The position numbers and the translations under genes are program-made. Below, one piece after another: positions 1 through 32,000 of a DNA stretch of 32,000 nucleotides. The stretch spans positions 390,001 to 422,000 of the forward strand of contig OZ245768.1 of NCBI GenBank assembly GCA_965227835.1, in the 5' to 3' direction. Source of the stretch: Candidatus Saccharimonadota bacterium. GTDB taxonomy: Bacteria; Patescibacteriota; Gracilibacteria; BD1-5; UBA6164. The notes under the pieces were generated by a model that was not told the origin of the DNA, did no database searches, and worked only from the letters and a program-made list of their open reading frames with translations. Positions within the stretch are counted from its first letter, which is position 1. Each line of letters opens with the position of its first letter.

Positions 1-1
1 T

Positions 2-319
2 ATATATTGAGAAGAGTTTCCAAGCCTCGTTTATGAAAAATATTGAGAGAATTCAAAAGATTTTAAAAAATATTTAAAATCAATAAATAATAAATTAATA
101 AATATTCCAAAATGCTTATGATGAACTTGAATTTATCAAAAATATAATGATTTAAAACAAAGAAATACTTTAGAGGATTATACCTATAAATATATTAAGA
201 ATTTATATATAAAGAAATCTTTAAATTGTAAAAAATGTAAATATAATAATAAATGTGAAGGAATTCATATAAATTTTATAAGAAGTTATGGTTTTAGTAT
301 TTTACAACCAATTAGGTAG
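2..319 (+). CDS. radical SAM/SPASM-like protein, C-terminal fragment (5' end outside window)
   Basis: Frame is open from the window edge under table 25, with 5 in-frame TGA. The tail ...PKCLGGTGIYQKY...NCKKCKYNNKCEGIHINFIRSYGF is Cys-rich (CxxCx5CxG) and paralogous to the tail of the next gene (CKSCDLNSICSGIY). TAG stop at 317-319; length is divisible by 3. Confidence 0.6.
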
Positions 320-412
320 TTTTATCATATCATTTTTACTTTTTTTACCCGATTATAAGTTTAAATGTAGTTATTAAAAATTAAATTATATATCAATTAA
401 CTATAAATTTAA

Positions 413-1357
413 ATGGCAAATATTTGATACATACAAGTAAATAGACATTGTAATAATGCATGTCATTTTTGTAGTAATCCAAGTAATGGGAATAATATTA
501 GCTATGAAAGATGAATATATCTTATAGATGATTTTGTAAAAAGATGATATAGATGAATAATATTCACATGATGAGAGCCAACACTTTCACCAGATTTGCC
601 TAACTGGCTTGCATATACAAGGGAAAAATGAATAGAAAATAGAATGATATCTAACTGAATGATGTGTTCAAATTCGAAATTTATGAAAAATTTAGCCGAA
701 TCTTGATTAGAATTAGTTCATTTTTCTGTTTATTCTTGTTTTTCTAAAATTCATGATTTTTTGACAGATACACCTGGAAGCTGGGAAAAATTAATAAAAT
801 CTATAACAAATGCTTTAAACAATTGAGTAAGAGTTCAAATAAACACAGTTATTAATCATTATAATGAAAATCATTTAGATAAAACAATAAAATTTTTGAC
901 TAAAACCTTTCCTCCTATAACTCATTTTGTTTGGAATAATTTAGATCCACTTATGATGAGAAAAACTGGCACTGCTTGGTCTACATTGCCAGATTTTGAT
1001 AATTTTAAAGAATCCTTAAAAAAAGCAACATATTATTTAACTGTAACTTGAAGAACTTTTAGAGTTGAAAGAGTTCCTCTTTGTTATATGAATTGATTTG
1101 AATGGGCTTCTACAGAAACTAGAAAAATTGTAAAAAATGAAGAAAGAATAGTTCATTTTTTAGATGATAGAGAAACTATTAGGCAGTATTGAAAACACTG
1201 GGAGCATAATAAGTTAGACTGATGTAAAAGTTGTGATTTAAATAGTATATGTTCATGAATTTATGAATACAGAAAATATTATAATTATGTAAACGTTTAT
1301 CCTCAAAAATTAAATAAAAAAGAAAAACAAGATATAATAAACAAGATAAATATTTAA
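413..1357 (+). CDS. radical SAM protein (CxxxCxxC; Cys-rich C-terminal tail)
   Basis: ATG at 413. The N-terminus MANIGYIQVNRHCNNACHFCSNPSN carries the CxxxCxxC 4Fe-4S motif. IFTGGEPTL is the GGE SAM-binding motif, and both Gly are TGA. C-terminal motif is CKSCDLNSICSGIY. TAA at 1355-1357. 315 codons translated triplet by triplet, with no TAA/TAG and many in-frame TGA. Confidence 0.85.
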
Positions 1358-2731
1358 TTATTTTATAAATTCACTTTCAAAGATTTCTAAAAATAATTTT
1401 GTTATATAGCTAATTATACTATTTCAAAAAATAAATGTAATTACAAATGAAGCTACAATATATGGCGCAAAAGAAAAAGTTCTTAATATTTTTAAATTTT
1501 TTATTTTCATAAATCAATTTGTTTTTTTTTCAATATGGTGATTATTTACCAAGCTAAAAGATTTTTTTATTAATAAGGAAGTTTCTTTATCTATAGGATT
1601 TGATATTTTTGAAAAGTATAATCATGGGTTAGGGTATAATAGATAGTTTTTTTTCTTTTTTTCTTTTTCATTAGGTTCAATATATCATAAAATAGCTTGC
1701 CTCCCCAACATCTTAACCAAATATTCTTTATCCACAATATCACCCTCTTTCAAATCTCTTATATTAATAAATTTCATCTCAGAAATATGAAAAGTAATCT
1801 TATAAGCATAAAAAAGAACTCTAAAAATAATATATATTCATATATATAAAGTAAAAATTAAAAACAAGTACCCTAAAATTTCACTTGGATTTTTGATATA
1901 CTCATAAAATACAAAACCCAATAAAATAATAAATAAAATGACCAAAAACACATTTCAAACTAAATCTAGTCTTAACTTCAACCTATTAGATAAATATTTT
2001 TTAATTCTAACAACTAAAAATTTAAATAAATACAATCATCCAATAAAAATACCAACCAAAGCAAAAATTAAATAAAAATGATATTTTTCAAATATATTCC
2101 CTTCTCCTATAAGGAGAGGGTTTAGGGGTGAGGTTTTTAAACTATCAAACAAATAAACCCTACTGAGTCTAATACTTACAAAAATAAGTAAAAATACCAC
2201 TAACCATTTTAAAATTATAGACAGAGATTTTCATCATTTATTATTTTTATAAATTTTCCACCTATCCCACAAATCATTTTTTATCTGATAAAAAAGAGAC
2301 TTTACATATCATTTTTGAAAAATACATCTTCCCAAATAAAACCGAATAAAATACAAAAACATATAGGTCAAAACTATAATGGCTAAGTTACCAATAAAAG
2401 ATATTACTCAAATATGAGGAATAAAAAGAGATAAAACTAATAAATACTTAGCATCTCAAGCTGACCAAATTCAAAAATAATACAATATAAAACTTACAAA
2501 AAAAGTTAGAAATATTTGTAAAAATAAGTATAAAATCTTAACATGACTTAAATCTATAAAAGGTATAAGATTATAAAAATTGAAAATAAAAATATAATAA
2601 AAAGGCACAATAACAATTAAATATCCCAAATAAATATTGGGGATTTTTTTTTCTTTTAAATCTGAATTAACAATTCTGTAGTTTAAATACAGAAATAAGA
2701 CTACAATAATTATAATAGGAATATAAATCAT
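1358..2731 (-). CDS. polytopic membrane protein with A24 prepilin-peptidase-like N-terminal domain
   Basis: ORF-track fragment 2471..2731 reads through in-frame TGAs into a single 458-codon ORF, checked codon by codon. Its TAA (1358-1360) abuts the TAA of the convergent radical-SAM gene inside the palindrome TAATTA (1355-1360). There are many hydrophobic spans. NSDLKEKKIPN and FGIWSAGDAKYLLVLSLF resemble the two catalytic-Asp motifs (D..[RK].IPN and G.GD.KL) of A24 peptidases of the CpaA/TadV/FlaK type. The C-terminal half is unassigned. Confidence 0.6.
2099..2131 (-). repeat. short palindromic GEG-type repeat element, copy 1 (inside the membrane-protein CDS)
   Basis: cccttctcctataaggagagggtttaggggtga. 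Its reverse complement, tcacccctaaaccctctccttataggagaaggg, aligns at about 28/34 positions with tcaccccccaatccctctccttagaggagagggg at 31392-31425. The core is an inverted repeat (ctctcctta.aggagag). It is translated in frame as ...TSPLNPLLIGEG... Confidence 0.6.
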
Positions 2732-2759
2732 TTTGAATTTTATAAACTAGCTAAAAGAA

Positions 2760-3998
2760 TTAAAACTCTTGGATATTATTTAAAAATTCCAAGAAATTTA
2801 CAATTTTTAATCATTTTACTTCAAAATAGGTTTCAGTTTTATAATATACAAGATATTTATGAGAAAAATTACAAGCAAGCAATCACTTAGTTTCTCTATC
2901 TAAATTTTCTATATTTAAATCATAACAAACTTGCACTCAAATATTTTTATCAAGAACAATAAAATCAATTTCGTAATCTTTGTTTTTCATATAAGACACA
3001 TCATCAAATTTCTTATTAAGTTCATTCCATACTGCATTTTCAAATCTTTGTCATAAATTTTCCAAAAGAAGTATGTTATTGTATCATAAGTCATAAAAAA
3101 AGAATTTCTTTGATCATTTTTTATATTTATCTAAAAACTCTTTTATAAAAAATATTTCTTTCAGGTATTCTATGTAATTATAAATGGTTTGTTTTCAGAT
3201 TTTAAGATTTTGTGATTTCAACTCATTAAATATTTTGTTTATATTAAATTCTTTTGTAATACCAAGTAATAGTTTCTTTATAAGGTACTTTATTGCATAT
3301 TCATTCTCTATTGAATATTTTTCCAATAAATCTTTATACAATAATAAATTAAAGTATCATTTAATTAATTCATATTTAGTTTCGTTATTTTTAGATAATA
3401 CTATCTCTGGATAAGATCAAAAATTTAGAAATTCACTTATAGTATTGCTTAATAAAGCTAATTGTTTTTCAGTGTATGTGTTATCTATTTTTATGTCTCT
3501 AAAGTACAAAAATTCCATAAATTTTAGTGTATGTACTCTTATGTCTATGGTTCTTCATCTAAATACTGTTGATATTTCACTTGATAATAATTTTGAATTT
3601 GAGCCACTTAGAAATAATTTATATCACTCATTGAATAAATATATTACTATTTTTTTAAAATTTATTAGTTCTTGTATTTCATCAAAAACAAAGAAGGGTT
3701 TTTTGTTTGGGTATAGTTCAAAGAAATTTTCAAGCAATTTTTCTACAGAAAAATCATCATATAGGAATGCTGTAAAATCTATAAAAACTATTTGTTTTTT
3801 ATCTATTTTTTTTTCTTTTATTAGCTTTTTTAATGTGAAGAACATAAAATATGTTTTACCTGCTCTCCTTGGTCATACAAATGTGATTATCTTATTGAGT
3901 TTTAAATATTCATAGTTAAATCTTATTTGTCTTTTCAAAGGATTAATTTCAGAAATTTTCTCTTGTCATCTGAGTATGAGTCTTTTATATTTATCCAT
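2760..3998 (-). CDS. AAA+ ATPase, COG1373 type (AAA_14 + DUF4143-like)
   Basis: 413 codons checked triplet by triplet, from ATG at 3998 to TAA at 2760-2762. The P-loop VGPRRAGKT is at 3852-3875, with its first Gly encoded by TGA. Walker B-like FFVFDEIQ is present. The architecture and motifs are typical of the uncharacterised COG1373 ATPases. Confidence 0.85.
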
Positions 3999-4124: not shown

Positions 4125-5777
4125 TTAGCTTTCTTCCTTATTACTTTTCATAATAGGGAAAAGTATTACATCTCTAAGATTTTCTTGCCCAGTTAGCAAA
4201 GAAACTATTCTATCTATACCCATACCCCAACCTGATTGACAAGGCATACCATATTCCATTGCTAGAACAAAATCATCATCTCATGAAGTTGCTTCTTCGT
4301 CTCATCTTTCTATTGCTTCAGACTGTTCGCTAAATTTTTCTTTTTGAATTTTTGGGTCGACTAATTCTGAGTAAGCTTTTAATACCTCCCATCAATTTAA
4401 TACAAGCTGAAACTGCTCTACTATATTTTCATTATCATCTGATTGTCTTGCTAAGGGTTGCATTGTTACAGGGTAATTATAAACAAAAGCTGGACCTACT
4501 ATATTTGGTCTTAAAACCTTTTTATATAAATAATCTATCATTGTAGAAAGTCCTTGTTTATCTATTCACTCCCAAGTAAATCAAGCTTTTTTTATATCAC
4601 TTCTTAATTTCTTTTCATCTTCTATACCATATTTAGAAATATCAATACCTGATTTATCTTTTACCCCTTCTATATAATCTATTCTATCAAAAGGAGTCTT
4701 AAAATTAACTAATTTTTCCTCTCAATTTTTATCTTTTATTTTCAATTCTCTTTTTATATTCATTTTATCAAATAGATAATCAAACATTTTTTCTGTAAAC
4801 TTCATATTATCTTCAAAATTCCACCAAGCAGCATAATGTTCAACCACACTAAACTCTTGAACATGAGAAGGATCAGATCATTCATTTCTAAAATTTTTTC
4901 ATATTTCAAAAACTCTTTCAAACCTTCAAACAGTTGCCTTTTTTAGGGCTATCTCTGGAGCTATACGAAGAAAAAAATCTTCATCAAAATCGTTGTGATG
5001 TGTTACAAAAGGCTGAGCCGCAGCTCAGCTTGCAGCATTTCCCAAGATAGGGGTTTCTATTTCTACAAAACTATTTTCCCAGTAAAATTCTCTTATTGTT
5101 TTTATAAATTTACTTCTAAACATAAATATATCAAAAGAATCTTTATTTGTTATCAAATCAAGATATCTTTGTCTATATATTATTTCTCTATCTTGAAGTC
5201 AATGAAATTTTTCAGGTAAAGGTCTTATTGCTTTTGATAATATTTGAAATTCTTTTACAAATACTGTCAGTTCTCCGTGATTTGTTAAAAATAAATCTCA
5301 TATAATACCAATATAGTCTCATATTTGGCAAAATTTCTCAGCTATTTTAAATGCAGATTTTGTTTCTCATCATATTTCTATTTCAGATACTAAATTTCAT
5401 TTTTTTTCTTCCTTTTTTATTTCATCGTAATTATTTGAGTTTTCTAATCTATTCTCATATTTTGAATTTCAAGTGTTAAATACAATTTTATCTTTAGCAA
5501 AACAAATTTGTATTTCTCAGCTTTGGTCTCTTATTTTTCAAAATAAAAGTTTTCACATCCCTCTGCTTGATATAATTCTTCCAGCTAATTTATATTCACC
5601 TTTTGCTCAGTTTTCCATTAATTCTTCTGCTTTTTTTTTCTTTTGTTCTAAACTACTTGTAACTATATATTCTATGTCTTGCTTTCATGAAAACTTGTTT
5701 GCATAGCAAATAATTCAAGCCTCTTTCATTAATTTTATTTTATTTTGTCTTTCTAAGCTTTCTTTTGAGTATTGCAT
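4125..5777 (-). CDS. lysS: lysine--tRNA ligase (class II)
   Basis: 551 codons checked triplet by triplet. Conserved motifs: [51 protein letters not shown], and C-terminal [40 protein letters not shown]. Several conserved Gly are TGA. TAA at 4125-4127. The only in-frame ATG before the upstream stop is 5775-5777. Confidence 0.95.
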
Positions 5778-5981: not shown

Positions 5982-7148
5982 ATGAGATATTTAGAAAAAT
6001 ATATACTGCAAGATTTACAAGATAAAATGGTTTTCATATGATGACCAAGGCAGGTATGAAAAACTACAATTTCCATTAATATAGCAGATAATAATTTTTC
6101 CAATTATACATATTTAAATTGGGATAAAAAAGAACATAGAAAAAAAATACTTGATTCAACATATGATTTTTGAAGTAAAATAATCATTTTCGATGAAATA
6201 CATAAATATAAGTCTTGGAAAAGACTTTTGAAATGAGAATTTGATGTAAACAGACAAAAATATAAATTTCTTGTAACTGGTAGTGCTAGATTAGATATTT
6301 ATCAAAAATGATGAGATAGTATGCTTTGAAGATATTATTATTATAGGCTTCATCCATTTAGCTTAGCTGAAATACTATCTATAGAGAATGATTTTTCAAA
6401 ATGAATAAAAATACATTTTAAAAATATATTTCCAAAAGATAAATTATTAGAATTAGTTGAATTTTGAGGTTTCCCTGAAGTCTTTACAAAGAAAAACTTA
6501 AGGATTCTTAATAGATGGAAAAAAGACAGGCTTAAAAGAATAGTTTATGAAGATATAAGAGATTTAAATAATATAAAAGATTTATGACTTTTAGAGCTTC
6601 TTGCTTCTATACTAAATACAAAAGTTTGAAGTCCTTTTTCAATAAATTCTCTAGTTGAAGATTTACAAGTTACAAATAAAACTATCACAAATTGGATTGA
6701 TATATTTGAGAAGGTTTATTTGGTTTATAGGATATATCCATTTTATAAATCAAATTTAAAATCACTCAAAAAAGAGCCAAAACTATATTTTTGGGACTAT
6801 ACAGGTTTAAATAATATATGAATAAGAAATGAAAATCTTGTTGCAAATCATTTATTAAAATGGGTTCATTTTTTGACTGATGTATACTGATATGATGTAA
6901 AACTACAATATTTAAGAGATAAACAACAAAGAGAGGTTGATTTTGTTGTAAATATAGACTGAAAAATAAAGTATCTTATAGAAGTAAAAACAAGTGATAT
7001 AAATGTATCTAAGCATCTTTTGTATTACAAAGAAAAACTTGAAGTGAAGGATTGTTTTCAGGTTGTATTTTTAGATAAAGAAATTGATTTTGAAAAACAC
7101 TGAGTAAGAGTTATTTCAGCATCTAAATTTTTAACAGCATTTGTATAA
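5982..7148 (+). CDS. AAA+ ATPase, COG1373 type (AAA_14 + DUF4143-like), second paralog
   Basis: 389 codons translated triplet by triplet. The P-loop FIGGPRQVGKTT at 6039-6068 has three of its Gly encoded by TGA. Other motifs: IIIFDEIHKY Walker B, and LVTGSARLDIYQKGGDSMLGRYYYYRLHPFSL, which is typical of this family. TAA at 7146-7148. Confidence 0.85.
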
Positions 7149-7433: not shown

Positions 7434-8630
7434 CTAAAAAATAACTTCTCCATCTTCTTCTCCTGAAGCCAACTCTAGTTTTTCTGCTCCAGGCAAAGCT
7501 TTTCACATAAGTGATTCTAAATCTCAATACATATGAGTAACAGCAAAACTAGCTCTTTCTAGATCTCTTTCTCTTTTTTTCCAATTTTTTTCCATGGCTC
7601 TTCTTTCAGCATCAATTCAAGCTTTTAAATTAGAAAATACATCAACTATCATTGATATTTTAGAAGAAAATTCTTCACTTGTTAAATACTTATAAAGCAT
7701 TTCCATTTTTAAATCTTTTCATTCAACAGATTTTTCTATTTTTGAAACAGAAAGTAGTTTGTCCCTTAGTATGGAAGATACAGCAATTACAAATTCTGGT
7801 GAGCAAACCATTACATCATCCAATAAACCAAAATTTTTAATATCTTTTGGCATTACATAAGAAACTAAAATAGCTATATCTCAGTTTACTTTTAGCTTAT
7901 CCTCTTTTAACTTCATAATCCAAGAATCTGACCAAGCTTTGGTATTTTTTGATTCCCAGACTATAGTTCAAGAATCTTGTCAAAACTTATCTCTAACTTT
8001 TTGTATAATATCTGCTCATTTTACTCAGGTTGGTACATCTTCTATTAAATCAAAAGGGAAGTTTAGTTTTAGGGAAGTTTTTAAATCTTCTTCTGATATA
8101 TCACCTTGTATTTGTTGTGATCATTGTTCAGATTTTCTCTTTAAATCATCAATTGTTTTTTTCATTTGTTCTTGTTGCTTTTGGTACTCCAACTCTTTTT
8201 TTCTATTTTCTTCTTGTATATTTTTTAGTCTTTCTTCTAATTGTTTATCATTTTTTTCATTTAGCTCTTTTGTTATTTGATCCTGCATTTGTCTTTTTTG
8301 TTCATCAAGCTTTCTTGTCATTTCTAGTTCTCTATCTTTTTCCTTTTGTTCTAATTCTCTTTGTTTTTTTCTCATTTCTAATTCTTGTTTTTGTAAATTT
8401 TCTATTTGTTTCTGTTCTTCTGCTAGTCTATTTTTCAAATCCTGCATTTCTATAGAATCTTTTTTAGCTTGTTTTAAAGCTTCAGATTTAGCAAAATCTA
8501 TAGCCTTTTTCCTCATTTCTTCTCTTTCTTTTTCAAATTCTTCTTCAAGTTTTTTTCTGTATTTATCTTGAGATAGTTTATCTAAATCTATTATTGTTTT
8601 ACACGAAGGGCATACTATACTTTGTTCCAT
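7434..8630 (-). CDS. DUF2130-like protein: Zn-ribbon, long E/K/Q coiled coil, PD-(D/E)xK-like C-terminal domain
   Basis: ORF-track fragment 8121..8630 reads through TGA into 399 codons, checked. N-terminal CPSCKT, then about 150 aa of coiled coil. The next stretch is GSQQIQGDISEEDLKTSLKLNFPFDLIEDVPTGVKGADIIQKVRDKFGQDSGTIVWESKNTKAWSDSW, which matches my memory of the DUF2130 consensus (GAD...WESK, an E-x-K nuclease-like motif). TAG at 7434-7436. Confidence 0.75.
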
Positions 8631-9942: not shown

Positions 9943-10686
9943 ATGGATACAAGTTTTCATAATATAAAGGCTGATAGTTATGAGGTAACTAGGGTTAATA
10001 AACTGGTGAAAAACACCTATATTACCATCGGTATAGGGATTATGCTTAGTGCTATATCCTCTTATTTTACTTTGAATGTTAATATAAGTTTGTTTCCACT
10101 TATATTGATGCTTGCCTCTATGTTTGGTCTAATTTTTGCAATTAGTCATTTCAAAAATAGTGCTATTGGTTTGTTCCTCTTTTTTGCTTTTACAGCACTT
10201 ATGGGAGCTTTCGTAGGACCGGCTATAGGTCTTTACCTAGATTTGCCTAACGGGAAAAACATTGTTACTATGGCATTTACTATGACAACTTTTGTATTTA
10301 TAAGTTTGTCTTGTTATGTTCATATTAGCAAAAAAGAATTCAGCTTTATCGGAGGTTTTCTTTTTACTGGATTGATATTGCTAATTGTTGCAATGATACT
10401 CAATATTTTTTTCTATCATCCTGTCTTCCATTTGGTGATAAGTTGTGTGGCTGTTCTTGTATTTTCTGGTTTTATTTTATATGATACTTCTAGAATGGTA
10501 CATGAACATAATGGTAACTATATTGAGTTAGCATTGTCGCAATTCTTAAATATTTTTAATCTATTCATACATTTATTATCCATTCTTGGGATACTTTCTG
10601 ATGATTGATTAAGAAAAATAAAAGGAGTTTACCTAAAACACCCTGCTTTGAAAAAAGCAGGGTGGTTTTTTAAAATTCCATATTAA
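9943..10686 (+). CDS. Bax inhibitor-1/YccA family membrane protein (ancestral stop TGA at 10606-10608; reads on to TAA 10684-10686 under table 25)
   Basis: Strong SD aggaggt 7 nt upstream of the ATG. Seven-TM-like profile with the C-terminal LYDTSRM...LFIHLLSILGI signature of the BI-1/YccA family. All 14 Gly are GGN, with no internal TGA. GC is visibly higher than in the flanks. The TGA after ...SDD is followed by an intrinsic terminator that lies inside the table-25 extension. Confidence 0.85.
10639..10671 (+). terminator. intrinsic terminator of the BI-1 gene
   Basis: caccctgct-ttgaaaaa-agcagggtg followed by gtttttt. Confidence 0.8.
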
Positions 10687-13324: not shown

Positions 13325-13720
13325 CTACATATCTAAAAGCCTATAGTCTTTATCTATCTCCAAAAAATCATTTTTTATACTTAATTTAAAATTAATTGAA
13401 TCACTTGTTTTTCATGACAAAATATATTCTATTTCATCAATTATAATTCAAGTGCTTGTATTTGCTGTAGAACAATTATCTAAGTTTAGGTAAAAATTAT
13501 TTAAATTGGAGTTGGAGGCTCAGCTTCAAAATATATTTTCAATACATTCTCCAAAACTGAAAAAAAGATAATTTGTATTTTTATAAATATTTGAATTGTT
13601 TATGCTTTTTGTATTTTCTCAAATCAATTTAAAAACTCAAAAAACAGCCATACTTAACAACACAGAAGCCACTACAACTTCTATTAGTGAAAAAGCTTTT
13701 TTCTTTTTTTTGATTAACAT
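13325..13720 (-). CDS. type IV pilin-like / pseudopilin protein (prepilin-type N-terminal motif)
   Basis: 132 codons checked. The N-terminus MLIKKKKKAFSLIEVVVASVLLSMAVFG carries the [KR][GA]F[ST]LIE cleavage/methylation-type motif (13679-13699) followed by a hydrophobic helix. TAG at 13325-13327. Confidence 0.75.
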
Positions 13721-14351: not shown

Positions 14352-16229
14352 TTACAATTCTTTTTTTCTATACTCATCCAAAATTCTTACTTTAAAATCT
14401 TCTAGCTTTTCTACAGTTTGTTCTTTAGTCTTATAATTCCTTACAGATACACTTCAGTTTTTTTCTTCTTGCTCTCAAATAACCAATATATAATTAATAT
14501 GCATTTTTTCCGCATTTCTAATTTTCTTGTTCAATGATTCAGTGCTTAAATCTGATGTTACCCTTATTCAATCCTTTTTAAAATCTTCTTCTATTTTTTT
14601 AGAATACTCATCAAGTTTAGATAACACAGGTATGATTATAACTTGTCTTGGAGCCAACCAAAGAGGAAATGTTCCTGCAAAATGTTCTATCAAAACTCAC
14701 ATTCATCTTTCAAGTGATCAAAAAATAACTCTATGTATTACAACCGGTCTTTCTTTTTCTCATTTTTCGTTATTAAAACTTAAATCAAATCTTACAGGCA
14801 AATTGAAATCACATTGTATAGTTGCTAGTTGCCATTGTCTTCAAATAGCATCTTTGAACATAAAATCAAGTTTTGGTCAGTAAAAAGCAGCTTCTCATTC
14901 CACCCTTTCATATGGTAAATTATTTTCCTTACTTGCCTCTTCCAATTCTTTTTCTGATTTTTCCCAAATATCATTATCTCATATATATTTTGATTTATCA
15001 CTTCATCTTACAGAAAGAGATACCCAATAATCTTCTGTCATTCAAACAGTAGTATAAAACTCCTTAATTATATCAGTTATTGATTTAATTTCTTGTTTTA
15101 GTTGAGATACTCTACAAAACAAATGACCATCATCTTGAGTTATAGATCTCACTCTTGTCAATCATCAAAGTTGTCATGATTTCTCATCTCTATAAACTGT
15201 TGCTGGTTCAAAATATCTAACAGGCATATCTCTATAAGAAAATTGATTATCTGCAAATATCTGCATATGGTGAGGACAATTCATAGGTTTCATAAAAAAT
15301 TCTTCTTCCTTTCATTTTACTTTAAAAAGTTCATCTCCAAATTTAGAAGCATGACCTGATTTTTCATATAAATCTTTTTTTGCCATATGAGGTGTCCATA
15401 CCCTTTGATAACCTTTTTTAGAATGTATTTCCCATAAATAATCTTCTATTTCTTTTCTCATAATCATTCAAGCTGGTTGTATTAGAGGCAATCAAGCTCA
15501 AACTAGATTTGAAATACTAAATAGTTTTAATTTTTGTCCCAGTATTCTATGATCTCTTTTTTTTGCTTCTTCAAGCATATTTAAATGCTTATCTAGTTCT
15601 TCTTTTGTATCAAAAGCATAAGCATAAATTCTAGTTAACTGCTTATTTTTTTCATCTCAAAGCCAATAAGCTCATGCTATTCTTACTAGTTTAAATGAGT
15701 TTGAATCTATTTCTTTTGTATTTTCTACATGAGGTCAGCTACACATATCTATAAACTTTAGATTTTTGATTTGATCTCAATCAAGCTCACTAAATTCTTC
15801 AAAATTTTTACTTGTTAGATAATCTTGAACTTTACCATAATACTGGTTTGTTTTTCATTTTGATGTATTTATATAAAACCCAACTTTACCAGATTCTATC
15901 TTTTCAGCATTTTTGAAGTCTCAGCTTTCAAATTTATCTACAAGCTCAATTTTAAATCATTCTCACATATTTTTTAATATATCTCTTGCTTCATCAAAAT
16001 TTACTTCAAATTTTTTAAAATCTTGATTAGCACTAACTATTTTTTTCATTGATTTTTCTATTGTTTTCAAATCTTTTTCTCAAAATTCATCTTCTCAAAA
16101 ATCAAAGTCATAAAAAAATCAATCAGAAGTATCAGGTCAAGTAGCTATTTTACAATTTGGGAAATTATTTTTTACAGCTTGAGCCATAATGTGGGCCAAA
16201 GAATGTCTCTTTGTCGATATATTAGTCAT
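14352..16229 (-). CDS. thrS: threonine--tRNA ligase (no N-terminal TGS domain)
   Basis: 626 codons checked triplet by triplet. It starts [44 protein letters not shown], which is the HxxxH editing-domain motif and GP..DGFYYDF with Gly encoded by TGA. Class II core motifs include [10 protein letters not shown] and [16 protein letters not shown] at 14352-14354. Confidence 0.9.
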
Positions 16230-16492: not shown

Positions 16493-17527
16493 ATGTTAAA
16501 AGAAATTTTACAGATGTCTATAGACTTAAAAGCTTCAGATATAATACTTTCTTCATGATCAAAAGCTAGTTTAAAAATATGATGAGAAGTTAAATTTATA
16601 GAAGATAAAGAAGTTATTTCAAAGCAGTATATGCAAAATATAGTTTTTTCAACTATGAGTGAAAACCAGAAAAACAGATTTATAGCAGAAAAAGAGCTTG
16701 ATTATGGTATATGATTTGGTAAACATAGATTTAGAGTAAACGCATTTGTTACTAGAAAAGGTATGGGAATAGTATGCAGACCTATTCCAACAGAGGTTCC
16801 TGAATTTGATAATTTATGATTACCTCCAATAGTAAAAACTCTAGCTCACAGGAGGAATTGATTAGTTTTAATAACATGACCTGTATGATCTTGAAAATCT
16901 ACATCTATGATTTCATTGGTAAATGAGATAAATAATACAGAAAATAAACATATAATAACCGTAGAAGATCCAATAGAATTTATATTTGAAAATAACAAAA
17001 GCTTGATAGAACAAAGAGAAGTTGGTACTTCAACTCTTAGTTTTGATAATTGATTGAAATATGCTCTTAGACAAGCTCCTGATGTTATAATGCTTGGGGA
17101 AATGAGAGATATAGAGACTTTCAGATTAGCTTTGAGAGCAGCTGAAACAGGAAATTTAGTATTTGCCACTCTACATACTTCTTGAGTTGCTAGAACTATT
17201 TCTAGAGTAATAGATATGTTTCCAGCTTGAGAGAAAGATCAAATAAGGGGGCAATTATCCGAATCACTTATATGAGTTATATGGCAAAAATTATTAAAAT
17301 CAAAAGATGAAAAGGGGAGAGTACTTGCTACAGAAGTTATGATAAACAACACATCTATTTCAAACATTATAAGGAAGTGAGATACTCATCAGATAAACTC
17401 TGTTATAGAAACTTCTTTGACAGAGGGTATGATTAATATGAAAAGGACTTTAGAAAAACTTTATGAGCATTGAAAAATAAGTGAAGATTTGTACAAGGAA
17501 GAAATTAAAATGCTTTGAACAGATTAA
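16493..17527 (+). CDS. pilT: type IV pilus retraction ATPase PilT
   Basis: 345 codons checked. Walker A GPVGSGKS at 16877-16900 is encoded tga-cct-gta-tga-tct-tga-aaa-tct. Other motifs: [40 protein letters not shown] (His box) and [11 protein letters not shown] at 17525-17527. Confidence 0.9.
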
Positions 17528-17535: not shown

Positions 17536-18507
17536 ATGAAAAATATAAAATTAAATAACTTTAGTATCAGGAGAATAAACTTAGTTTTATTTTTTTTGGT
17601 ATTTTTATCAAGTCTAACTTTCTTAATTTTTCCAGAGTTTTTTTCTTTTAAAATTTATTGGATAGGGTTTGTATTTTCACTTTTTTTTCTTTTTTTAGTA
17701 CTAAATCATATATACTACATAGATTTTGAGAGATCAAAAAATAATATCAAACAAGCATTTAAAAATAATGATTTACCCATCAATAAAAATGGCTTATATA
17801 AAGAAAATAATGAACAATACAACTTATTTAAATATTTTTTTATAGATAGAAAAATTAAACAAAAGGATTATTTGGATTTAGAAGGTGTACTTCAAAAATT
17901 TACTCCAGAATATTTTTTAAATTATTTTTCAAAAAAAGGTAAAGATAGAATAGAGCTTGGATTATCTTCAAAGCAATTTATGCATGTTATGTTTTTAGAT
18001 ATAATAGGTTTTACTACAATTACAGAAAAGATAAGTCCAGAGAGAGCACTTCTTCTTCTCAATATATATTTTGATTGAATTGTAGAGATTATAAAAAAGT
18101 ATGGATGAAATATAGATAAGTTTCTTTGAGACTGAATTTTAATAGTTTTTACTGATAATAATTCTGACAATGCACTTTATGCTAGTATAGAAATACAAAA
18201 ATATATAAAGAATTTTAATATTTCAGATATATGAAAAAATATCTCAATTTGAATAGGAATAAATTCCTGAGAAGTAATTATGTGAACTATTTGATCTAAT
18301 AAGAGAATGGAGTTTACTATAATTTGAGATGTTGTAAATACAGCTTCTAGGATTGAAGGTCTTACTAGAGAGTTTGAAAACAAGATAATAATTTCAAAAG
18401 ATACTTTTGATAATATATTAGATAAAAAAAGATTTTCTTTGAAATACTTATGAGAGAGAGTGCTAAAATGAAAAAAAGTTAAGAAAAAGATTTATGGAGT
18501 AGCTTAG
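17536..18507 (+). CDS. membrane-anchored class III adenylate/guanylate cyclase
   Basis: Starts 8 nt after the pilT stop. Two N-terminal TM segments, then VMFLDIIGFTTITE...YGGNIDKFLGDGILIVF...[40 protein letters not shown], the class III cyclase catalytic signature with several Gly encoded by TGA. 324 codons checked. TAG at 18505-18507. Confidence 0.85.
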
Positions 18508-19331: not shown

Positions 19332-20535
19332 GGGTCTGTTGCAAATTAGATTTTAGCTATTAAAAAGAGAAAAAAGAGATATAATTAGATAGTAATTATA
19401 TTCTAAGAAAATACCTATGTGAGAATCAAATCAAATAAGTTTTGTTATCCTAAACGAGCTAATTCCAGAAAATCATCAATATCGTAAATTTAAGAAATTG
19501 TGGAACTTTGATTGAGTAAATAAAATACTAAAAAATATAGATCTATGAAAAACTCATGTATGATATTGAGTAAAAAAATTATTTCTATGTTTACTAATCC
19601 AGTTTATGGAAGATCTATCAGATAGAGAGTTAGAGAAATATCTTGCAGAAAATTTAGCTGGTAAATGGTTTTGCTGATTTAAATTAACAGATAAAACTCC
19701 AGATTATAGTATATTCTCAAGAGCAAGAAAAAAGATATGAACAAATGAACTATCAAAGATATTTGAAGATTTAAAAAATCAATTATCAAATAAGGGGTAT
19801 ATGAGTGAAGTGTTTACATTTGTAGATGCTTCTCATTTAGTTACTAAAGCTAATTTATGGGAAGAAAGAGATAAATGAATAAAAGAATGATATGAAAAAA
19901 TGAATAATGAAACTCTTCCAAAAGTTGCTAATGATAAGGAAGCTAAAATTTGATCTAAGTGAAAAAATAAATTTTGGTATGGTTATAAAAAACACGCTAG
20001 TGTTGATATGCAATCTTGAATGATAAACAAGATAGCTATAACTCAAGCTAATGTAACAGATGCAAAGTGAATGAAACATGTATTACCAAATTCATGAGCA
20101 GTATATGCTGATAAGTGATATTGTATTTGACCAGCTATATTATCATCAAAAAAGAAGTGATTACATTTATGTGCAATAAAGAAGAATAATATGAAAGAGA
20201 AGGATAAGGATAAAGATAGATTTTATTCTAAACTTAGATCTCCTTATGAGAGAGTATTTTCAAAAATGAATCATAGAGTGAGATATAAATCTGTAGTAAA
20301 AAACCAGTTTACTGCATTTATGGAAGCTATATCTTTTAATCTCAAAAGATTGGTTGTATTAGAGGAAATCCCAATAGCTTAGATTAGTTTCCTTAGGTGG
20401 ATTTTGTCTAAAATCCTAAATTATATATAAAAATGGCTATAATTTAACAAAAAATAGATGAATTTTATAAATCTTTCATCTATTTAGTACTTTTCTTAAT
20501 TAAAACTCTTTTTAAAATCAAAACGCAACAGACCC
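19332..20535 (+). mobile_element. IS5-family insertion sequence (about 1.2 kb) with terminal inverted repeats and a 5-bp flanking direct repeat
   Basis: Left end gggtctgttgc at 19332-19342 and right end gcaacagaccc at 20525-20535 form a perfect 11-bp IR. AATAT lies immediately outside both ends (19327-19331 and 20536-20540). It contains one transposase ORF. Confidence 0.8.
19417..20382 (+). CDS. IS5-family DDE transposase (DUF772-type N-terminus)
   Basis: 322 codons translated. LIPENHQYRKF is typical of the InsH/DUF772 N-terminus. FVDASH, AVYADKGY and RSPYERVFSKM match the D, D, E regions of the IS5/IS4 superfamily. I count 17 in-frame TGA, for example in GYGVKK and ADKGY. TAG at 20380-20382. 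Confidence 0.85.
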
Positions 20536-20868: not shown

Positions 20869-22704
20869 ATGTTTAGAACTCATAAATGCAACGAACTATC
20901 CTCAAAAAATATTTGAGAAGAAGTTACTTTATCTGGTTGGGTAAGCAACAGAAGAGATCATTGATGAATTATTTTTATAGATCTTAGAGATAGATATTGA
21001 TTAACTCAAATAGTATTTGATCCTAAAGATAATAAAAAATCTTGGGAAACAGCAGATTCTTTTAGGAGTGAATATGTTATAAAAGCTTGTTGAAAAGTAA
21101 GATCAAGACCAGAATGACAAGCTAATCCTAATATGCAAACAGGGGATATAGAAGTAATCATAGAAGGTAATACAGAGATTTTAAGTGTATCAAAAACTCC
21201 ACCTTTTGAAGTAGATGATTTTTGAGAATTAGCAAATGAGGAAGTAAGGTACAAATACAGATATATAGATTTAAGAAGACCTAAAGCTTTAGAAAATATT
21301 AAATTTAGATCAAACTTTCTTACATATACAAGAAACTGGTTCGTATCTAGAGATTTTTTAGACATTCAAACACCTATTTTCACAGCATCTTCTCCGGAAT
21401 GAGCAAGAGATTTTATAATTCCTTCTAGACTACATCCAGGTAAATTTTATGCGTTACCTCAAGCTCCTCAGCAATATAAACAGCTTTTGATGGTATGATG
21501 AGTAGATAAATATTTTCAAATAGCACCTTGTTTTAGAGATGAAGATCCTAGAGCTGATAGACATGCTTGTGAGTTTTATCAAATAGATTGTGAGATGAGT
21601 TTTGTAAAACAAGAAGATATATTTGAAGTAGTTGAAAATTATCTAACTGATGTAGTTTGAGAACTATCAGATAAAAAAATAACCTCTAAATCTATTTTTT
21701 CTCAAAAAGAAGAAACTAGTAAACTTAGATTTTCTCAAATTTCATATTTAGAATCTATGGAATTTTTTGGTACAGATAAACCAGATTTGAGATATGATAT
21801 GAAACTTATAGACGTAGCTAATATATTCTCTAGATCACAAAATGAGATTTTTAGCTCCATAGCTTCTGATTCAAAAAATAATAGAATAAAAGCTATAAAA
21901 GTAACAAATTGAGATAATTTATTTTCCAAAACTCAAATGAAAAATTTTGAGAAATATGTTTCTCAATTTTGAGCTAAAGGTCTTTGATATTTTCAAATGA
22001 AGCAAGAAGGTTTGAAATGACCTTTAAATAAATTTTTCAGTGATAAAGATTTGTCAGATATAATAGAGATTACTGATTTGAAAGTTTGAGATGTAGTTTT
22101 TTTTGGAGCTTGAGATAAAAATACAGTACTTGATTATATGTGAAAATTTAGAGTATATTTATCTAAGTTAATTGATGAAATTATGTGATGAGAATTTATT
22201 CCAAAAGATGAATTAGCCTTTTGTTGGATTACTGATTTTCCTATGTTTGAGATAAGTGAAATTAATTGAAAGATAGACTTTGGTCATAATCCCTTTTCTA
22301 TGCCAAAATGATGAATAAAAGCTTTTGAAAAAGAAAATTTGCTAGAAGTAGAATCAGATCAATATGATTTATCTTGTAATGGTTATGAGGTATTATCAGG
22401 TTCTATTAGAAATCATGATTTTAAATCTTTGGTTAAAGCTTTTGAAAAAATATGAAGAAATGAAGAAGAAGTAAAAGAAAAATTTGGGGCTATGTATGAA
22501 GCTCTTCAATATTGAGTTCCTCCTCATGGAGGTTTTGCTATAGGGATGGATAGGCTTATTATGATTTTGAAAGATGAGGATAATATTAGAGAAATATATG
22601 CCTTTCCTAAATCTGGTAGAGCTCAGGATTTGATGATTAATGCTCCTTCTTTTGTTGAGGATATTCAACTGAAAGAATTGAATATAAATGTTTTGAAGAA
22701 GTAG
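20869..22704 (+). CDS. aspS: aspartate--tRNA ligase (bacterial type)
   Basis: 612 codons checked. The N-terminus [52 protein letters not shown] has TGA at the conserved Gly positions. Other motifs: [33 protein letters not shown] and [17 protein letters not shown] at 22702-22704. Confidence 0.95.
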
Positions 22705-23428: not shown

Positions 23429-23430
23429 CT

Positions 23431-26400
23431 TTACTCTATATTATCTTTTATATATTCTAAAGATTTTCAAGGATGATTAAACATAGTTATATCGTTATCT
23501 CATATTTCTTCCAAAGTAGGTATAGAAGAATCAAAGCCTTTATCTTTTAAGAAATCTTTTATCTTTGTATCACCAAGCATATCATAAATCAAAAGTAGTA
23601 TAGCATTTATATTTTCCTCATTTTTTTCTGATTTTTGATTTAAAATAGGTGTTAAATACTTATCTTTCATATATTTAAAAATCACTTTGTCTTTTCAAGA
23701 TAGGTTTATTCTCATCATTTCCACTTGGTATTTTAATATATAATCCTGTAAAACCCTATAATCATATCAGACTTTTCATATACCTTTATCTAAATTATTA
23801 GTAATATAGCTTAATCAGTAAATTTTGCCTCCAATTCATTTACTGAATTTTTTTTCTATCATTTTCTCTGGTATATCTATATCTGGATTTATCAATTTTA
23901 AAATTCTTACTATGTAGTTTTCACCTATAGCAAACATCATATTATTTTCTCCTTGATTCATTCATAAAAGAATCATAGCATAATAAGATTTTCTTGACTG
24001 TTCATCTAAAATAATTTCTATTGGATTTTCCTTTACTAAATTAAATAATATATGTGAAAAATGATTACTTATATCCATTAGTTTTGCCTTAGCTATATGT
24101 GTTGACATAACTTGTCAGACTAAATTATTATTTTTTTTACTAGATTTACTCCAAGTTGAATCTTCCCATAAGGTTGTTGAGAAATCTTGTATTACATCTC
24201 TAAGTATTTCTCTTTCTTCCTCTCAAAGTCTAAAAACTCACCTTTCTTTTTCGGGTATTTTTTGCCACTCCCTTTTTCTGTCTTTTATTATCTCATGTAC
24301 TTTTCTAAGTTTACCAATTTCTTCGTCTACATATCTAAAACTTTCCCCATTTGTATATAAAAAATCAAGAACTTCTCTTTGGTGTAAAAATGATATTGAA
24401 TCTAAAACCCAGTCAGGATCTAGAAATTTTAATTTGATTTGATAATCTCATAAAGAGCTTGTATATTCTTTTCAGAATATAGAATAATAAATATTTAGAA
24501 CTCTTTTTAAATTTTTTCTTGAAATTATTCCATATCAAAAGTTACCTTCACCATTTTCTGATTCTATAAATCTTGATATGTCAAGTAGGGAAGCTATATT
24601 TTCATTTCTTGCTACTAAATCAATTACTTCATCTGCGGTTCTATCATCTCCCACTCTTTCCATTTTATTTATTTTAAATTCTTCAATTATATCTAAAATA
24701 TCACTTATATCTATTGACATACTAGAATTAACATTGATATTCCTCTTGTTCATAAAATCAACTCTATTATCCTCATTTAAATACCTTCATTTTTTTTCTA
24801 GTACAAAATATAGAAAATATTGTCTCTGTAATGGATCAAGATTTCTGATGTATGAAAGTTCAGGATGTTTAAATTCATGATAATATAGTTCATTTGTTAT
24901 ATTATTAAAAATATCTGTAACAGAATCGTTTGGATAAAATACTATATTACCAAAATCTCTTTGTTTTGCTCTCTTTTCTCTTTTATCTTTAATTTCTCCT
25001 CTTCTTTTTTCTATATAACGATTATGAGGTATAGTTTTTGTTTCAAAATAGGGAAGAGGTATATTCACCACTAATGCTCATGGATTTACTTCTCCTTCTG
25101 TCTGTAAATAACCAAAAACTTGAAGTCATTTTATTTGTTCTCCATAATAATATTTTACAAGGTCCATATAATGAGGTGAAGTTATATCCAATCATTCTTG
25201 TATGGTTATTACTTCTTTGAGTGTATTGAAAAGACTATCTCAATACCTAAGAGCATATGTTGTTTTTATTTTTGTATCTTTGTAAAGACTATTTTTTTCT
25301 ATTCTTTTGAAAATTGATCATTCTCATGGGCTTATTATTTCTGGAATATAATATGAACTACTTGTAAGAAACTCCCAAAAAAATCTTACCCTTGATCTCA
25401 TAGTTTCTCTTTCCTCTTTTAATGGATTACTATAACCATGTACTCAATCAATAACTGTTAATCATCAAAGCTCTATTTCATCCTCAGGAAATACTTTTAT
25501 AGATTCAATATTTTCTCTCAAAAGATCTAAGAATTCTTTTGCTTTTACTTCTCTTTTTTTGAAATGCTCTGTTATAAAAAATTTCTGTCCTTCATAAATT
25601 TCAAAGATCATTCCATTATTTTCTATTTCATATCTTATACATGAATTAAAATCATCTTTGTTTATAAGTCTTTTATTTCCTTGAAACCAGCTATTTTTTT
25701 TAACACAATCTTCAGCTATTTTTATAAATTTATATTTTTCATATTCTTTTCTTAAATCTATTTTTTCTCAGTTTATTTTAATATCTATCAATTCAGCATA
25801 TTTTCATATTCCAGAATAAATATTATTTCTAAATGAATAATAATCTTTATCTCAAGAACCATCGATATCTAATCTATTTTGTATAAAGTGTCTTAGAAAG
25901 TGTATTATATCCATACTTTCTTCACTTATTTTTAGATTTTTATTTCTGTCTAGTTGATTAATTTCTTTAGTTAATTCACTTATTATACTATTTAGTGTTT
26001 TTATATTTAAGATAGCTCTATTATAGTTTATGTAATCAAAATGTATTTCTGGAGCTTTTAAATTCTTCGGTATAGTTTTATTTGGATTTTCCAACATATA
26101 TTTTAACAATTCTTCGCTAGCCTTTCTCTCTAGTAAACTTATAATAGTATCTCTTCTTTCTTCTTCTCTTTTTAATCTTAATTTTTTTAATCTTATCTCT
26201 TCCAAAAATACTTCTGGGTCATATCAAAAAAAATTTTGATATAATTGCTCCCTTCATCTTTTTATCCTGCTTTTTGTGATTTTCATTTCTGAGGCTTTGA
26301 AAGAAAAACTTTTTTCACCTAGAATTAATCATACATGAGTATTTGGATGAAATCATCCTCAACTTTCCATATATTCTCTTACATTTCTCTTGAAACTAGA

Positions 26401-27876
26401 ATATCTAAAAAGCATTGTTACTAGAGATCAATAGTATTTATCAGGATCTGCCATCATTTGAGTATATGAAGACTTTATATCTTGTATATAAGCATCATAA
26501 CTTTTATTATCTTCGTAAAAAGGTGAATCAATAGTTGTTCTTCTTTTATCAAAATATTGTCTAAAATCAAAACTATTCTCAAATCATATTTTTTTTAGTT
26601 CATCAGGTAGTATCCAAGCATCTATATTTTCTTTTATTATAAATGAATTTTCTTCATAAGAAGCTTTTTCAGGATCTATTCAAAATCACATTAGTTTTCT
26701 TATCATATTTGCACATCATACCAAATTTTCAAATGCTATATCAACTATTCTAGGTAGCCTTGATTCTCATAGAGTCATTTCAGACTCAGAAAACCATGAA
26801 AGAGTATTTAAATATCATAGCTTTTTAACTTTTTCAGGATATAGTCTATCATATATTTCTAATGTTTGTCTCCTAAGATTTTCTCTTGTTACTCAAATTA
26901 TTCAGGAATACTCTTCTGATTCTACTTCTACTGATTCTAGTATAGATCCTATAGTATCTCATTTTTTTATTACTATTTCGTGTTCTGACATAAATCTATA
27001 TCTTGTTACTTTTGAAGAGTTTTCATCAAAAACTACTTTTAATTCTCACATATCCAGTAAATCTCTTCAGTTGTCTAAATAAATCTTAGTTCATTTTACT
27101 ATTACTTTCCATCAAGGTTGTATATGAGTGTCCTTAAAATCTATAATTTGGGGTTTATATCAAGAGTATTCTCACTTTTTTTCTCTAAGCATTACCGAAA
27201 ATTCTCTTCATCATAAAAATTGGAAAACTACTTCTGTCCCTTTCAATAAACTTAAATTATCATATTTTTCTGCCAATACCTCATCAGCAACTATTTTTCT
27301 TATTACACTTCAAAGATGTGTTATTTCTGGTGTTTCATATACAGCCATAGTTTTTTCTCCTCTATCTACATATATATAGTGAGTAAGATTTTTATTTGGT
27401 TGTTTTATTACTATTCTATCATTTTCTATTTCTAGTTCATCATTATCTTCTACTTCTATCCGATCAGCTCTTTCTCAAAGTTCTCTATTTCATATTACTT
27501 GATTAACTACTTCTCCTAGAGAATCTCATGTGTTTAAATCTACTTTTCATAAGGCTAAAGCATTCATATATTCAATATCATTTAATCAAGGATCTTCATT
27601 AATTTGATTTAGTTTATATATAAATTCTGGTTCATTGTCTTTTTTATGTTCATATATATCTTCTAGGTATATTATATTTTCTCTTTGTTTATTTCATATA
27701 ATTCAAGTAGCTATGGGAGTATAATAAGATTTATTTTGTCCTGTGCTAGATGATACTATATCAAGAAACTTTAGATTGTATCAATCTAAAGTTTCTTGTA
27801 TTTCTATTTCTGGTAGACTAGCATTAGCAGTTCCAGCTAAAAGAGCTCATACTATTAATAATTTCTTTTTGCTCAT
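23431..27876 (-). CDS. giant secreted protein, 1481 aa, no recognisable domain
   Basis: All 1482 codons were read individually, and there is no TAA/TAG from 27876 down to TAA at 23431-23433. ORF-track fragments 23500..23685, 24535..24753, 24787..25071 and 25852..26205 are all in this one frame, separated only by TGA. The N-terminus MSKKKLLIVGALLAGTANA/SLPE is a Sec signal peptide with an AxA site. Confidence 0.8.
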
Positions 27877-30197: not shown

Positions 30198-30228
30198 AAT
30201 TTTTTTATATTTTTAATTTTACACGTAA

Positions 30229-30257: not shown

Positions 30258-30304
30258 AAAACTGACTACAATGTTTTTTATATCTTACAAAATAAAAAGT
30301 TGTT

Positions 30305-30332: not shown

Positions 30333-30362
30333 AATTTTAGTTTTTTATTTTAAAGTTATTTT

Positions 30363-31280
30363 ATGGTTAGAAATTTAAAAATATGATCACTTAATTGGAT
30401 AGATTGAGTTTGAATAAAGGATGAAGAGATAAAAAATATTTTATCTAAACATAGTGTACATGAGCTTGATATAGAGGCTTGTTTGGAGTGAAATCAAAAA
30501 GCAAGGATTGATAACTATCCATGATATTCTTTTTTGATACTTCATTTTCCTAAATACAACAGAATAAAAAAACTATATGAACTTAATCAGTTTAATATAT
30601 TTATATCTAAAAATGATTTAATTACCTTTAGAAATGCTACTTGAAATCATATAAATAGAATATTTAATTATTATGGTAGTTTGAAATCATCAGTTAAAAA
30701 AAGGGATATAAAAATTAGCACTTGATATATATTGTATGAAATTACACAAGCTATGCTTGAAAAAATGTTTAATGTTATAAAAAATATAACTCTTGATATA
30801 AAAACGATAGAAACAAAGATTTTTGATTGAAAAGATAGTACAAGTCTTGTTAGAGATATAATGATAAAAAAAAGAAATATAATTACTTTGAAACATATGT
30901 TTAAACCTCAAATAGCTGTGTTGAAACAATTAAAAAATTTGATAAATGATATATACAAATGAGAGATAGAGGTTTATTTTGAAGATTTGGAAGATAAACT
31001 TGACCAAATAGTTAATGATATAAATGTATTGCAAGAGTATATGGAAGGTGTTGAAAATTCTTTTAAGTCTATAGTTGATATAAAAACTAATTTTGTAATA
31101 AAAATACTTACAGCTTTTTCTGCTTTTATGCTTCCTCTTACCTTAGTTACTAGTTTTTACTGAATGAATATAGATTTGTCTCCTTATCAAAATATTAATA
31201 TACCTCTTTTTCTTTTTTCTATTGGTTTGTCTTTTATAGTTATTATTTATTTGTTTTTGAGAAGTGGTTGAAGGTTTTAG
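30363..31280 (+). CDS. corA: CorA-family magnesium/cobalt transporter
   Basis: 306 codons translated. The C-terminal two TM segments carry the signature LVTSFYGMNI, with YGMN at 31158-31169 and its Gly encoded by TGA. TAG at 31278-31280. Confidence 0.9.
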
Positions 31281-31391
31281 ATAAGAAAATTTTATTTTAT
31301 CTTGAAAATGATTTAAAGTTAATACTATAATTCTTCGAGCAGATATTATTTTGACTCAAATTAAATCTTATACTAATCACCCGAGCAGACT

Positions 31392-31425
31392 TCACCCCCC
31401 AATCCCTCTCCTTAGAGGAGAGGGG
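31392..31425 (+). repeat. short palindromic GEG-type repeat element, copy 2 (intergenic)
   Basis: tcaccccccaatccctctccttagaggagagggg. The inverted-repeat core is ccctctcc-ttag-aggagaggg. It is related to the copy at 2099-2131 and is flanked by short local repeats (cgagcaga x2, gatagaaca x2). Confidence 0.6.
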
Positions 31426-31603
31426 ATAGAACAGGAGAGATAGAACAGAGAAATTATTTAGAACTCTTTAACTCTAAAAATTACAAAAGAGTATTAGATA
31501 TAAAAAAATAGTTATAATAATTTTTGTTTTTATAATTATAAAGGAATTTTTCAGTTTCTCCTTAATATTTAGCTTTGTTTTAAATTAATAATAAATTTTT
31601 TTA

Positions 31604-32000
31604 ATGACTCCAAGAATAACAATTATAGGTAGACCAAATGTTTGAAAATCAAGTTTTTTCAATTTATATACCTGACATAAAATAGCAATTATAGATAATA
31701 TTTCTGGAACAACTAGAGATATATCTGAATTTGAATTCTATGATTCTAAAAATGATATAAAATATATAATTGCTGATTCTTGATGACTTGATTTTTGATC
31801 AAAAACTGATGAGGTTTCTTTAGATATTATAGAAAAAACAAGAGAATCTATGAAATCTTCAGAACTTTTAGTGTGGGTTTTGGAATATGATAAATTTAGT
31901 AATCTAGATGAAAAAATATTAAAAGTTCTGAAAAAGCAAAATTTTAATAACTATATAATAGTTGCTAATAAAGCTGATAATGAATCATTTGTTATGGAGT
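31604..32000 (+). CDS. der: ribosome-associated GTPase Der/EngA, N-terminal part (3' end outside window)
   Basis: [45 protein letters not shown]...IIADSGGLDF...ANKADN. This gives G1 GRPNVGKS, G3 DSGG and G4 NKAD, with Gly in G1 and G3 encoded by TGA. The frame is open to the window end. Confidence 0.9.

Follow-up and report, generated by a model that had tools for sequence, protein, structure and literature searches.

The 32-kb window analysed here (32,000 nucleotides; positions 390,001 to 422,000 of contig OZ245768.1, assembly GCA_965227835.1) is almost certainly a chromosomal segment of a member of Candidatus Gracilibacteria that uses genetic code 25, in which UGA is read as glycine and only UAA and UAG terminate translation. 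This use of UGA is already established for the Gracilibacteria and ordinary for the lineage, and the window adds no new principle to it. One gene, of the Bax1-I/YccA family, departs from the general pattern and bears the signature of the standard code. Below we describe the evidence for the meaning of UGA, weigh the alternatives, and then consider the exceptional gene and its surroundings.

The G+C content of the window is 25.0%. Read with the standard stops (table 11), 31% of the window falls within stop-to-stop open reading frames (ORFs) of 90 codons or more, the longest being of 222 codons. When only TAA and TAG are taken as stops, exactly 25 non-overlapping ORFs account for 90% of the window, the longest running for 1,486-1,487 codons from stop to stop, or 1,481 amino acids counted from its first ATG. 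A first reading made from the letters of the window (the sequence-only reading) had reported 25 long ORFs, one of 1,481 codons, and had proposed that coding density be compared between codes; the ORF set is reproduced. It had also held that such long TAA/TAG-free stretches are not expected by chance, and shuffling bears this out: in 100 shuffled versions of the window, the longest ORF free of TAA and TAG had a mean length of 124 codons and never exceeded 210, and coverage was 6.5%. Over the 9,630 codons of the 25 ORFs, TGA occurs in frame 360 times, in 24 of the ORFs and at about 37 per 1,000 codons, and neither TAA nor TAG occurs in frame at all. TAA closes 15 of the 24 complete ORFs and TAG the other 9.

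The proteins that result from reading through TGA are largely of recognizable kinds. A Pfam search of the window proteins, run with TGA masked as X, returned radical SAM, two AAA_14/DUF4143, LysRS, DUF2130, Bax1-I, pilin and ThrRS matches and, in addition, a PilT-type T2SSE ATPase, an adenylate cyclase, an IS5-like transposase, AspRS, CorA and a Der-type GTPase. Domain-complete aminoacyl-tRNA synthetases, PilT, CorA and Der are obtained only with TGA read-through. Coding density jumps likewise in all four related Gracilibacteria loci, L001 to L004, of which three belong to genomes at a greater distance.

What the read-through codon stands for can be judged from conserved positions in homologues. 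For aspartyl-tRNA synthetase (AspRS), 132-134 cluster representatives of 34-53% identity were aligned to the X-masked window protein. They had been gathered with the closest AspRS entry of the database (P0001), which carries W at the TGA sites, which biases the collection against Gly, and were then realigned locally. In the 25 TGA columns, about 130 diverse homologues have Gly in 58% of the cells and Trp in 0.15%. As controls from the same alignment, GGN columns are 71% Gly and TGG columns 47-49% Trp. The remaining codons with enough columns keep their standard meaning throughout, including AGG as Arg.

Solved structures from standard-code organisms point the same way. When PilT is compared with the Aquifex protein (2gsz), Gly stands opposite TGA at 11 of 16 positions, the three of Walker A among them, and when lysyl-tRNA synthetase (LysRS) is compared with 9slz, Gly is found at 13 of the 18 aligned TGA positions, including those in GNAASG and FEIGKNFRNEG, which are class II motifs. 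In CorA, compared with the Thermotoga protein (3jcf), TGA provides the G of the invariant GMN. The motifs that the sequence-only reading had quoted in support of glycine are indeed where it placed them: the Walker A run TGA-CCT-GTA-TGA-TCT-TGA-AAA-TCT of PilT at 16877-16900 (+), the two P-loops at 3852-3875 (-) and 6039-6068 (+), and Y-TGA-M-N of CorA at 31158-31169 (+). Those it had named in Der, AspRS and LysRS are likewise present in the window translations.

A further test was made at the DNA level and is independent of any translation table. Codon pairs with TGA on either side were tallied for thrS, pilT, aspS, corA and der against L002 (the HOT-871 genome, CP017714.1), L003 and L004. The partner of TGA was TGA in 57 pairs, GGN in 70, another codon in 36 and TGG in none, and all 20 of the window TGG codons compared remain TGG in these relatives. 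Against the near-identical locus L001 (93-99.5% identity), five exchanges between TGA and GGA were found and none between TGA and TGG. The amino-acid composition is also telling: Gly makes up 5.84% of residues when TGA is counted and 2.1% when it is not, and a table-4 translation would bring Trp to 4.5%. With 64% of the Gly codons in the window, TGA is the main Gly codon.

Because homologue columns, solved structures, codon exchange in relatives and amino-acid composition agree, the reading of TGA as Gly rather than Trp is supported across essentially every gene of the window. This is the meaning (table 25) that the sequence-only reading had proposed, and TGA columns occupied mainly by Trp, which it had named as the contrary outcome, were not found. 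Its wording that the whole window is recoded was slightly too broad; it stands for nearly every gene, the exceptions being a 141-aa ORF that has no TGA and the Bax1-I gene, whose TGA lies at the stop position of the family. Three points weigh against the glycine reading. About 40% of the TGA-column cells in the AspRS alignment are not Gly; since 29% of GGN-column cells are not Gly either, this is ordinary variability. The TGA at 10606-10608, in the Bax1-I gene, behaves as a former stop and not as a conserved glycine. Finally, the decoding machinery is out of sight, neither the window nor any of L001-L004 containing a tRNA gene.

The identity of the host was judged from the synthetases. Among the best 120 matches of AspRS and the best 120 of threonyl-tRNA synthetase (ThrRS), every named protein is from Candidatus Gracilibacteria (67-73% identity), HOT-871, GN02-872 and 28_42_T64 being among them, and none is from Absconditabacteria. 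These matches support Candidatus Gracilibacteria (BD1-5/GN02; GTDB class JAEDAM01) as the likely host. The sequence-only reading had offered Gracilibacteria or Absconditabacteria (SR1), a placement that is thus borne out and narrowed to the former. The gene orders aspS-corA-der and thrS-pilT recur in Gracilibacteria chromosomes, the closed HOT-871 genome (CP017714.1) being one of them; around thrS in L004, only the thrS-pilT order is kept. The window is chromosomal, not phage, DNA.

Some other readings of the frames deserve consideration. UGA could mean Trp (table 4), the sense that it has in Mycoplasmatales and in several endosymbionts of insects. The table-4 systems (Mycoplasmatales, Hodgkinia, Zinderia, Nasuia) do resemble the window: UGA is freed from termination in an AT-rich, reduced genome, and coding density jumps when TGA is read through, a jump that cannot by itself tell table 4 from table 25. 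Release factor 2 (RF2) is lost in these systems, as it would be here. Public entries of the present lineage (P0001 and P0271) even show W at the TGA positions. The systems differ in that UGA columns in the window are Gly and UGA is never exchanged with TGG. The Trp share of the TGA columns is minute beside that of the TGG columns, and exchange is with GGN (70) and never with TGG (0), although the latter would take only a single third-position transition. TGA moreover occupies the Walker A, class II synthetase and GMN glycines, and the Trp content that table 4 implies would be 4.5%. On these data we regard UGA as Trp as refuted. Refuted likewise, and more improbable still, is the standard code, under which the frames broken by TGA would be pseudogenes, sequencing errors or non-coding AT-rich DNA. 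It accords with the short ORFs of the table-11 reading, but it would leave without account the full-length, domain-complete synthetases, PilT, CorA and Der that appear only via read-through, the presence of TGA or GGN at the same positions in independent genomes, and the absence of in-frame TAA/TAG next to 360 TGA. Selenocysteine insertion or programmed read-through is rejected: TGA is found in nearly every gene and aligns to Gly, and an Rfam search of the whole window at gathering thresholds found no family.

The segment might instead derive from a phage or prophage with recoded stop codons. Such phages are known from both Gracilibacteria and Absconditabacteria (PMC10746230), and the window does hold unannotated genes in a block as well as an insertion sequence (IS) element. 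Against this stand three aminoacyl-tRNA synthetase genes, der, corA, pilT and a pilin gene, the synteny with Gracilibacteria chromosomes, and the absence of structural phage domains from the Pfam matches of the window proteins; there is hardly any room left for a phage origin. A different possibility is that the code is richer than table 25, with CGG, and perhaps CGA, also standing for Trp. Absconditabacteria read both CGA and CGG as Trp, and CGG as Trp has been predicted for some Gracilibacteria (PMC8629427). The 9,630 codons contain 1 CGA, 3 CGG, no CGC, 8 CGT and 322 AGA, and such near vanishing of CGA and CGG is the rare-codon state that accompanies these reassignments (PMC8629427). The four CGA/CGG sites (13087, 2344, 27462 and 28997) are all in unconserved proteins, however, and two of them are simply kept as CGG in L001, so they permit no inference. 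The extreme AT bias alone explains their rarity, and AGG reads as Arg in the AspRS columns. The extended code of Absconditabacteria (Shulgina and Eddy, 2021; PMC8629427) is thus like that of the window in having UGA as Gly and very rare CGA/CGG, and differs in that the best matches of the window are Gracilibacteria and only four such codons are present here. We consider the richer code unlikely, if appreciably less so than the other alternatives.

Code 25, with UGA as Gly, remains by a wide measure our preferred explanation. The UGA=Gly code was first reported in 2013 and is implemented in standard tools as NCBI table 25. The window resembles the systems covered by that table (SR1 and Gracilibacteria) in having UGA at conserved glycines, UAA and UAG as the sole stops, a small genome very rich in AT, and its best matches in Candidatus Gracilibacteria. 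There is no difference in kind, only the unusual dominance of TGA among the Gly codons. By analogy with the lineage, a tRNA-Gly dedicated to UGA (anticodon UCA) would decode it, RF2 (prfB) would have been lost so that nothing terminates at UGA, and the strong AT mutation pressure (25% GC) would then have driven GGA to TGA. The identity elements expected of a tRNA-Gly with anticodon UCA are G1:C72, C2:G71, G3:C70 and U73. Published work supports the tRNA and release-factor parts of this scheme. For a BD1-5 bacterium, UGA=Gly has been confirmed by proteomics (PMC4032931), and prfB was detected in no BD1-5 genome (PMC6851277). Codetta assigned UGA to Gly in 13 of 15 Gracilibacteria species, the two exceptions having RF2 and being without tRNA-Gly(UCA) (PMC8629427), and the code is now known from hundreds of genomes (bioRxiv 10.64898/2026.05.24.727570). 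Within the window no prfB adjoins lysS, which is weak evidence given so local a view.

A scan of contigs for the tRNA-Gly(UCA) with the pattern TTCAAA-N13-14-GTTCRANTC-N8-CGCT gave 104 matches, essentially all by chance and from unrelated phyla; the loop and acceptor features that it assumed are evidently unsuited to the Gracilibacteria tRNA. The one real Gly-type tRNA with anticodon UCA among these matches has a GCG...CGC-U acceptor and adjoins a tRNA-Glu (L055, 507-580 on the minus strand, JBAZTY010000004.1). It comes from an unrelated Patescibacteria metagenome-assembled genome of 44% GC; at this locus, ORF coverage is 94% under table 11 and 99.7% with TGA read through. This may be a higher-GC lineage that reads UGA as Gly and uses the codon sparingly.

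The Bax1-I/YccA gene stands apart from its neighbours. Its Gly codons are 16 GGN and a single TGA (P = 9e-7 against the ratio in the window as a whole), and its G+C content at third codon positions is the highest of the 25 ORFs. The TGA (10606-10608) lies at most one residue from the end of all 120 non-self homologues, as seen when '...LSGDD-stop' is set against '...LSDD-TGA'. Reading the gene under table 25 adds a tail of 26 codons, the frame being open to a TAA. Thirty nucleotides beyond the TGA there is a perfect 11-bp hairpin with 6 G-C pairs and a 4-nt loop, followed by GTTTTTT. The other strong hairpins of the window are all intergenic, and most follow closely on a TAA or TAG stop. In a search of 5.8 billion proteins, the only close relative is the genome's own copy (P0271). 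The next matches, of about 220 aa, have 38-51% identity and, where named, are mostly from marine Gammaproteobacteria; no Gracilibacteria homologue is among the top matches. Because the sole TGA sits at the stop position of the family, the gene was probably acquired horizontally from a standard-code organism.

Two contigs, L109 and L110, which carry two of the nearest non-self homologues, were considered as donor and rejected, these homologues being of 48-50% identity and 44-47% GC, with TAA stops, in standard-code genomes. The contigs measure 2.2 Mb and 1.3 Mb and come from ENA ERZ25070844, and L001 from ENA ERZ25074195; the accessions being in a similar range, L109/L110 and L001 may share a study or habitat.

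Whether the Bax1-I gene has crossed the 'genetic-code firewall' and has been caught before adaptation, its old TGA stop now being translated and a 26-residue tail added, is in our judgement evenly balanced. In that event, translation would continue across the terminator hairpin that belongs to the gene, as far as a TAA present there by chance. A related arrangement has been described in code-11-compatible phages of Gracilibacteria, which have no internal TGA and carry a back-up TAA behind a terminal TGA (Liu et al., 2023; PMC10746230). The same pattern of TGA plus back-up stop is seen in the Bax1-I gene. The gene differs in being a single cellular-type gene on the chromosome, and in having the back-up stop 26 codons off and beyond the hairpin. 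With the back-up stop that distant and past the hairpin, the gene looks like an unadapted import and not like a dual-code strategy.

Features of the 32-kb window (positions counted from its first letter; TGA, in-frame TGA codons)
Feature	Position	Strand	Remarks
ORF, 3' part, cut by window start	2..319	+	5 TGA; no Pfam match
Radical SAM protein	413..1357	+	PF04055, E 2e-17; 15 TGA
Multi-pass membrane protein	1358..2731	-	no Pfam match; 13 TGA
AAA_14/DUF4143 ATPase (COG1373 type)	2760..3998	-	P-loop G(TGA)PRRAGKT 3852-3875; 13 TGA
Lysyl-tRNA synthetase (LysRS)	4125..5777	-	Pfam; 9slz alignment; 23 TGA
Second AAA_14/DUF4143 ATPase	5982..7148	+	P-loop GGPRQVGKTT 6039-6068 with three TGA; 16 TGA in total
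DUF2130 protein	7434..8630	-	PF09903, E 2e-52; 10 TGA
Hypothetical protein, 372 aa	8642..9760	-	17 TGA
Bax1-I/YccA family gene	9943..10686	+	Pfam; 1 TGA, 16 GGN
Single in-frame TGA of Bax1-I gene	10606..10608	+	at the homologues' end
Intrinsic-terminator hairpin in table-25 tail of Bax1-I	10639..10671	+	11-bp stem, z = -4.9
Hypothetical protein, 632 aa	10815..12713	+	30 TGA
Type IV pilin-like protein	13325..13720	-	PF07963, N-terminal methylation motif; 6 TGA
Hypothetical membrane protein, 128 aa	13726..14112	-	1 TGA
Threonyl-tRNA synthetase (ThrRS)	14352..16229	-	73% identity to Gracilibacteria ThrRS of L004; 32 TGA
PilT-type retraction ATPase	16493..17527	+	Walker A 16877-16900; 16 TGA
Membrane-anchored adenylate/guanylate cyclase	17536..18507	+	PF00211; 12 TGA
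Hypothetical protein, 200 aa	18615..19217	-	6 TGA
IS5-like insertion sequence	19333..20534	+	transposase 19417-20382, 17 TGA
Aspartyl-tRNA synthetase (AspRS)	20869..22704	+	Pfam; 25 TGA
Lipoprotein-like ORF, 141 aa	22946..23371	+	only ORF without TGA; 7 Gly codons, all GGN
1,481-aa protein	23431..27876	-	N-terminal signal-like sequence; no Pfam match; 60 TGA
Hypothetical protein, 308 aa	27959..28885	-	6 of 23 Gly codons TGA
Hypothetical protein, 419 aa	28938..30197	-	17 TGA
CorA Mg2+ channel	30363..31280	+	GMN motif 31158-31169; 11 TGA
GTPase Der, N-terminal part, cut by window end	31604..32000	+	TGA in G1 GRPNVGKS and G3 DSGG

Several other features of the window may be mentioned. The lysS gene is flanked by two paralogous ATPases of the AAA_14/DUF4143 (COG1373) type, at 2760-3998 (-) and 5982-7148 (+). 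The IS5-like element, about 1.2 kb long, is bounded by perfect terminal inverted repeats of 12 nt, and CAATATG is present as a direct repeat at both ends. In L001 a copy lies at a different site (373-1568), and each of the two sequences has the site of the other uninterrupted (in L001 at about 4510-4530). These reciprocal empty sites imply recent transposition of the element in both the window and the L001 lineages.

Between aspS and corA lies a block of 7.5 kb (22870-30300) that encodes proteins of 141, 1,481, 308 and 419 aa, none with a Pfam match. The two flanking genes are adjacent in HOT-871, and other small genes separate them in L003. The segment 22870-31296 is the most diverged from L001 (93% identity, 42 gaps), the pilT-cyclase region being 99.5% identical. 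L001 also has, just upstream of aspS (4860-5348), a gene for a 162-aa NYN-domain protein (PF01936) that the window is without. The use of TGA for Gly is uneven among the genes, and the weaker outliers, after Bax1-I, are the 141-aa ORF with 0 of 7 (P = 8e-4) and the 308-aa ORF with 6 of 23 (P = 2e-4). That both of these low-TGA ORFs are in the aspS-corA block hints at a different history.

The gap at 12714-13324 (610 bp) separates convergent genes. It contains a sigma-70 promoter that agrees with the consensus at 12 of 12 positions and has an extended TG (12738-12766, plus strand), and a GC island of 34-38% at 13050-13250. Its sole ORF is a doubtful one of 85 aa, which holds the single CGA of the window. 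An Rfam search of 12650-13400 at E < 1 gave terminator-driven noise only. The gap may hold an undescribed small RNA or small protein.

The choice of translation table has practical consequences. Gene calls made on the window under table 11 are wrong, the genes being shredded into fragments of at most 222 codons. Calls under table 4 give full-length proteins, but in these roughly 4% of the residues are Trp in place of the correct Gly. Such entries are in circulation: P0001 (the AspRS of L001) and P0271 (the Bax1-I protein of this genome) have W wherever the DNA has TGA, and have therefore been called under table 4. P0271 and P0393 differ from proteins of the window at no residue outside the masked TGA positions. 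A scan of contigs with peptide patterns taken from P0001 found nothing because the patterns contained spurious W residues. Residues from the wrong table carry over into alignments, hidden Markov models and structure predictions.

In closing, we see the lasting value of this window in the annotation warning, that is, the presence of table-4 translations in public collections, and in the Bax1-I gene, which may be an unadapted import from the other side of the code boundary. The gene offers a small, concrete example of entry into a recoded genome with a TGA stop. If this view of it is true, genes of this kind could serve, genome-wide, for dating and counting transfers into code-25 lineages, and for probing the cost of read-through tails.

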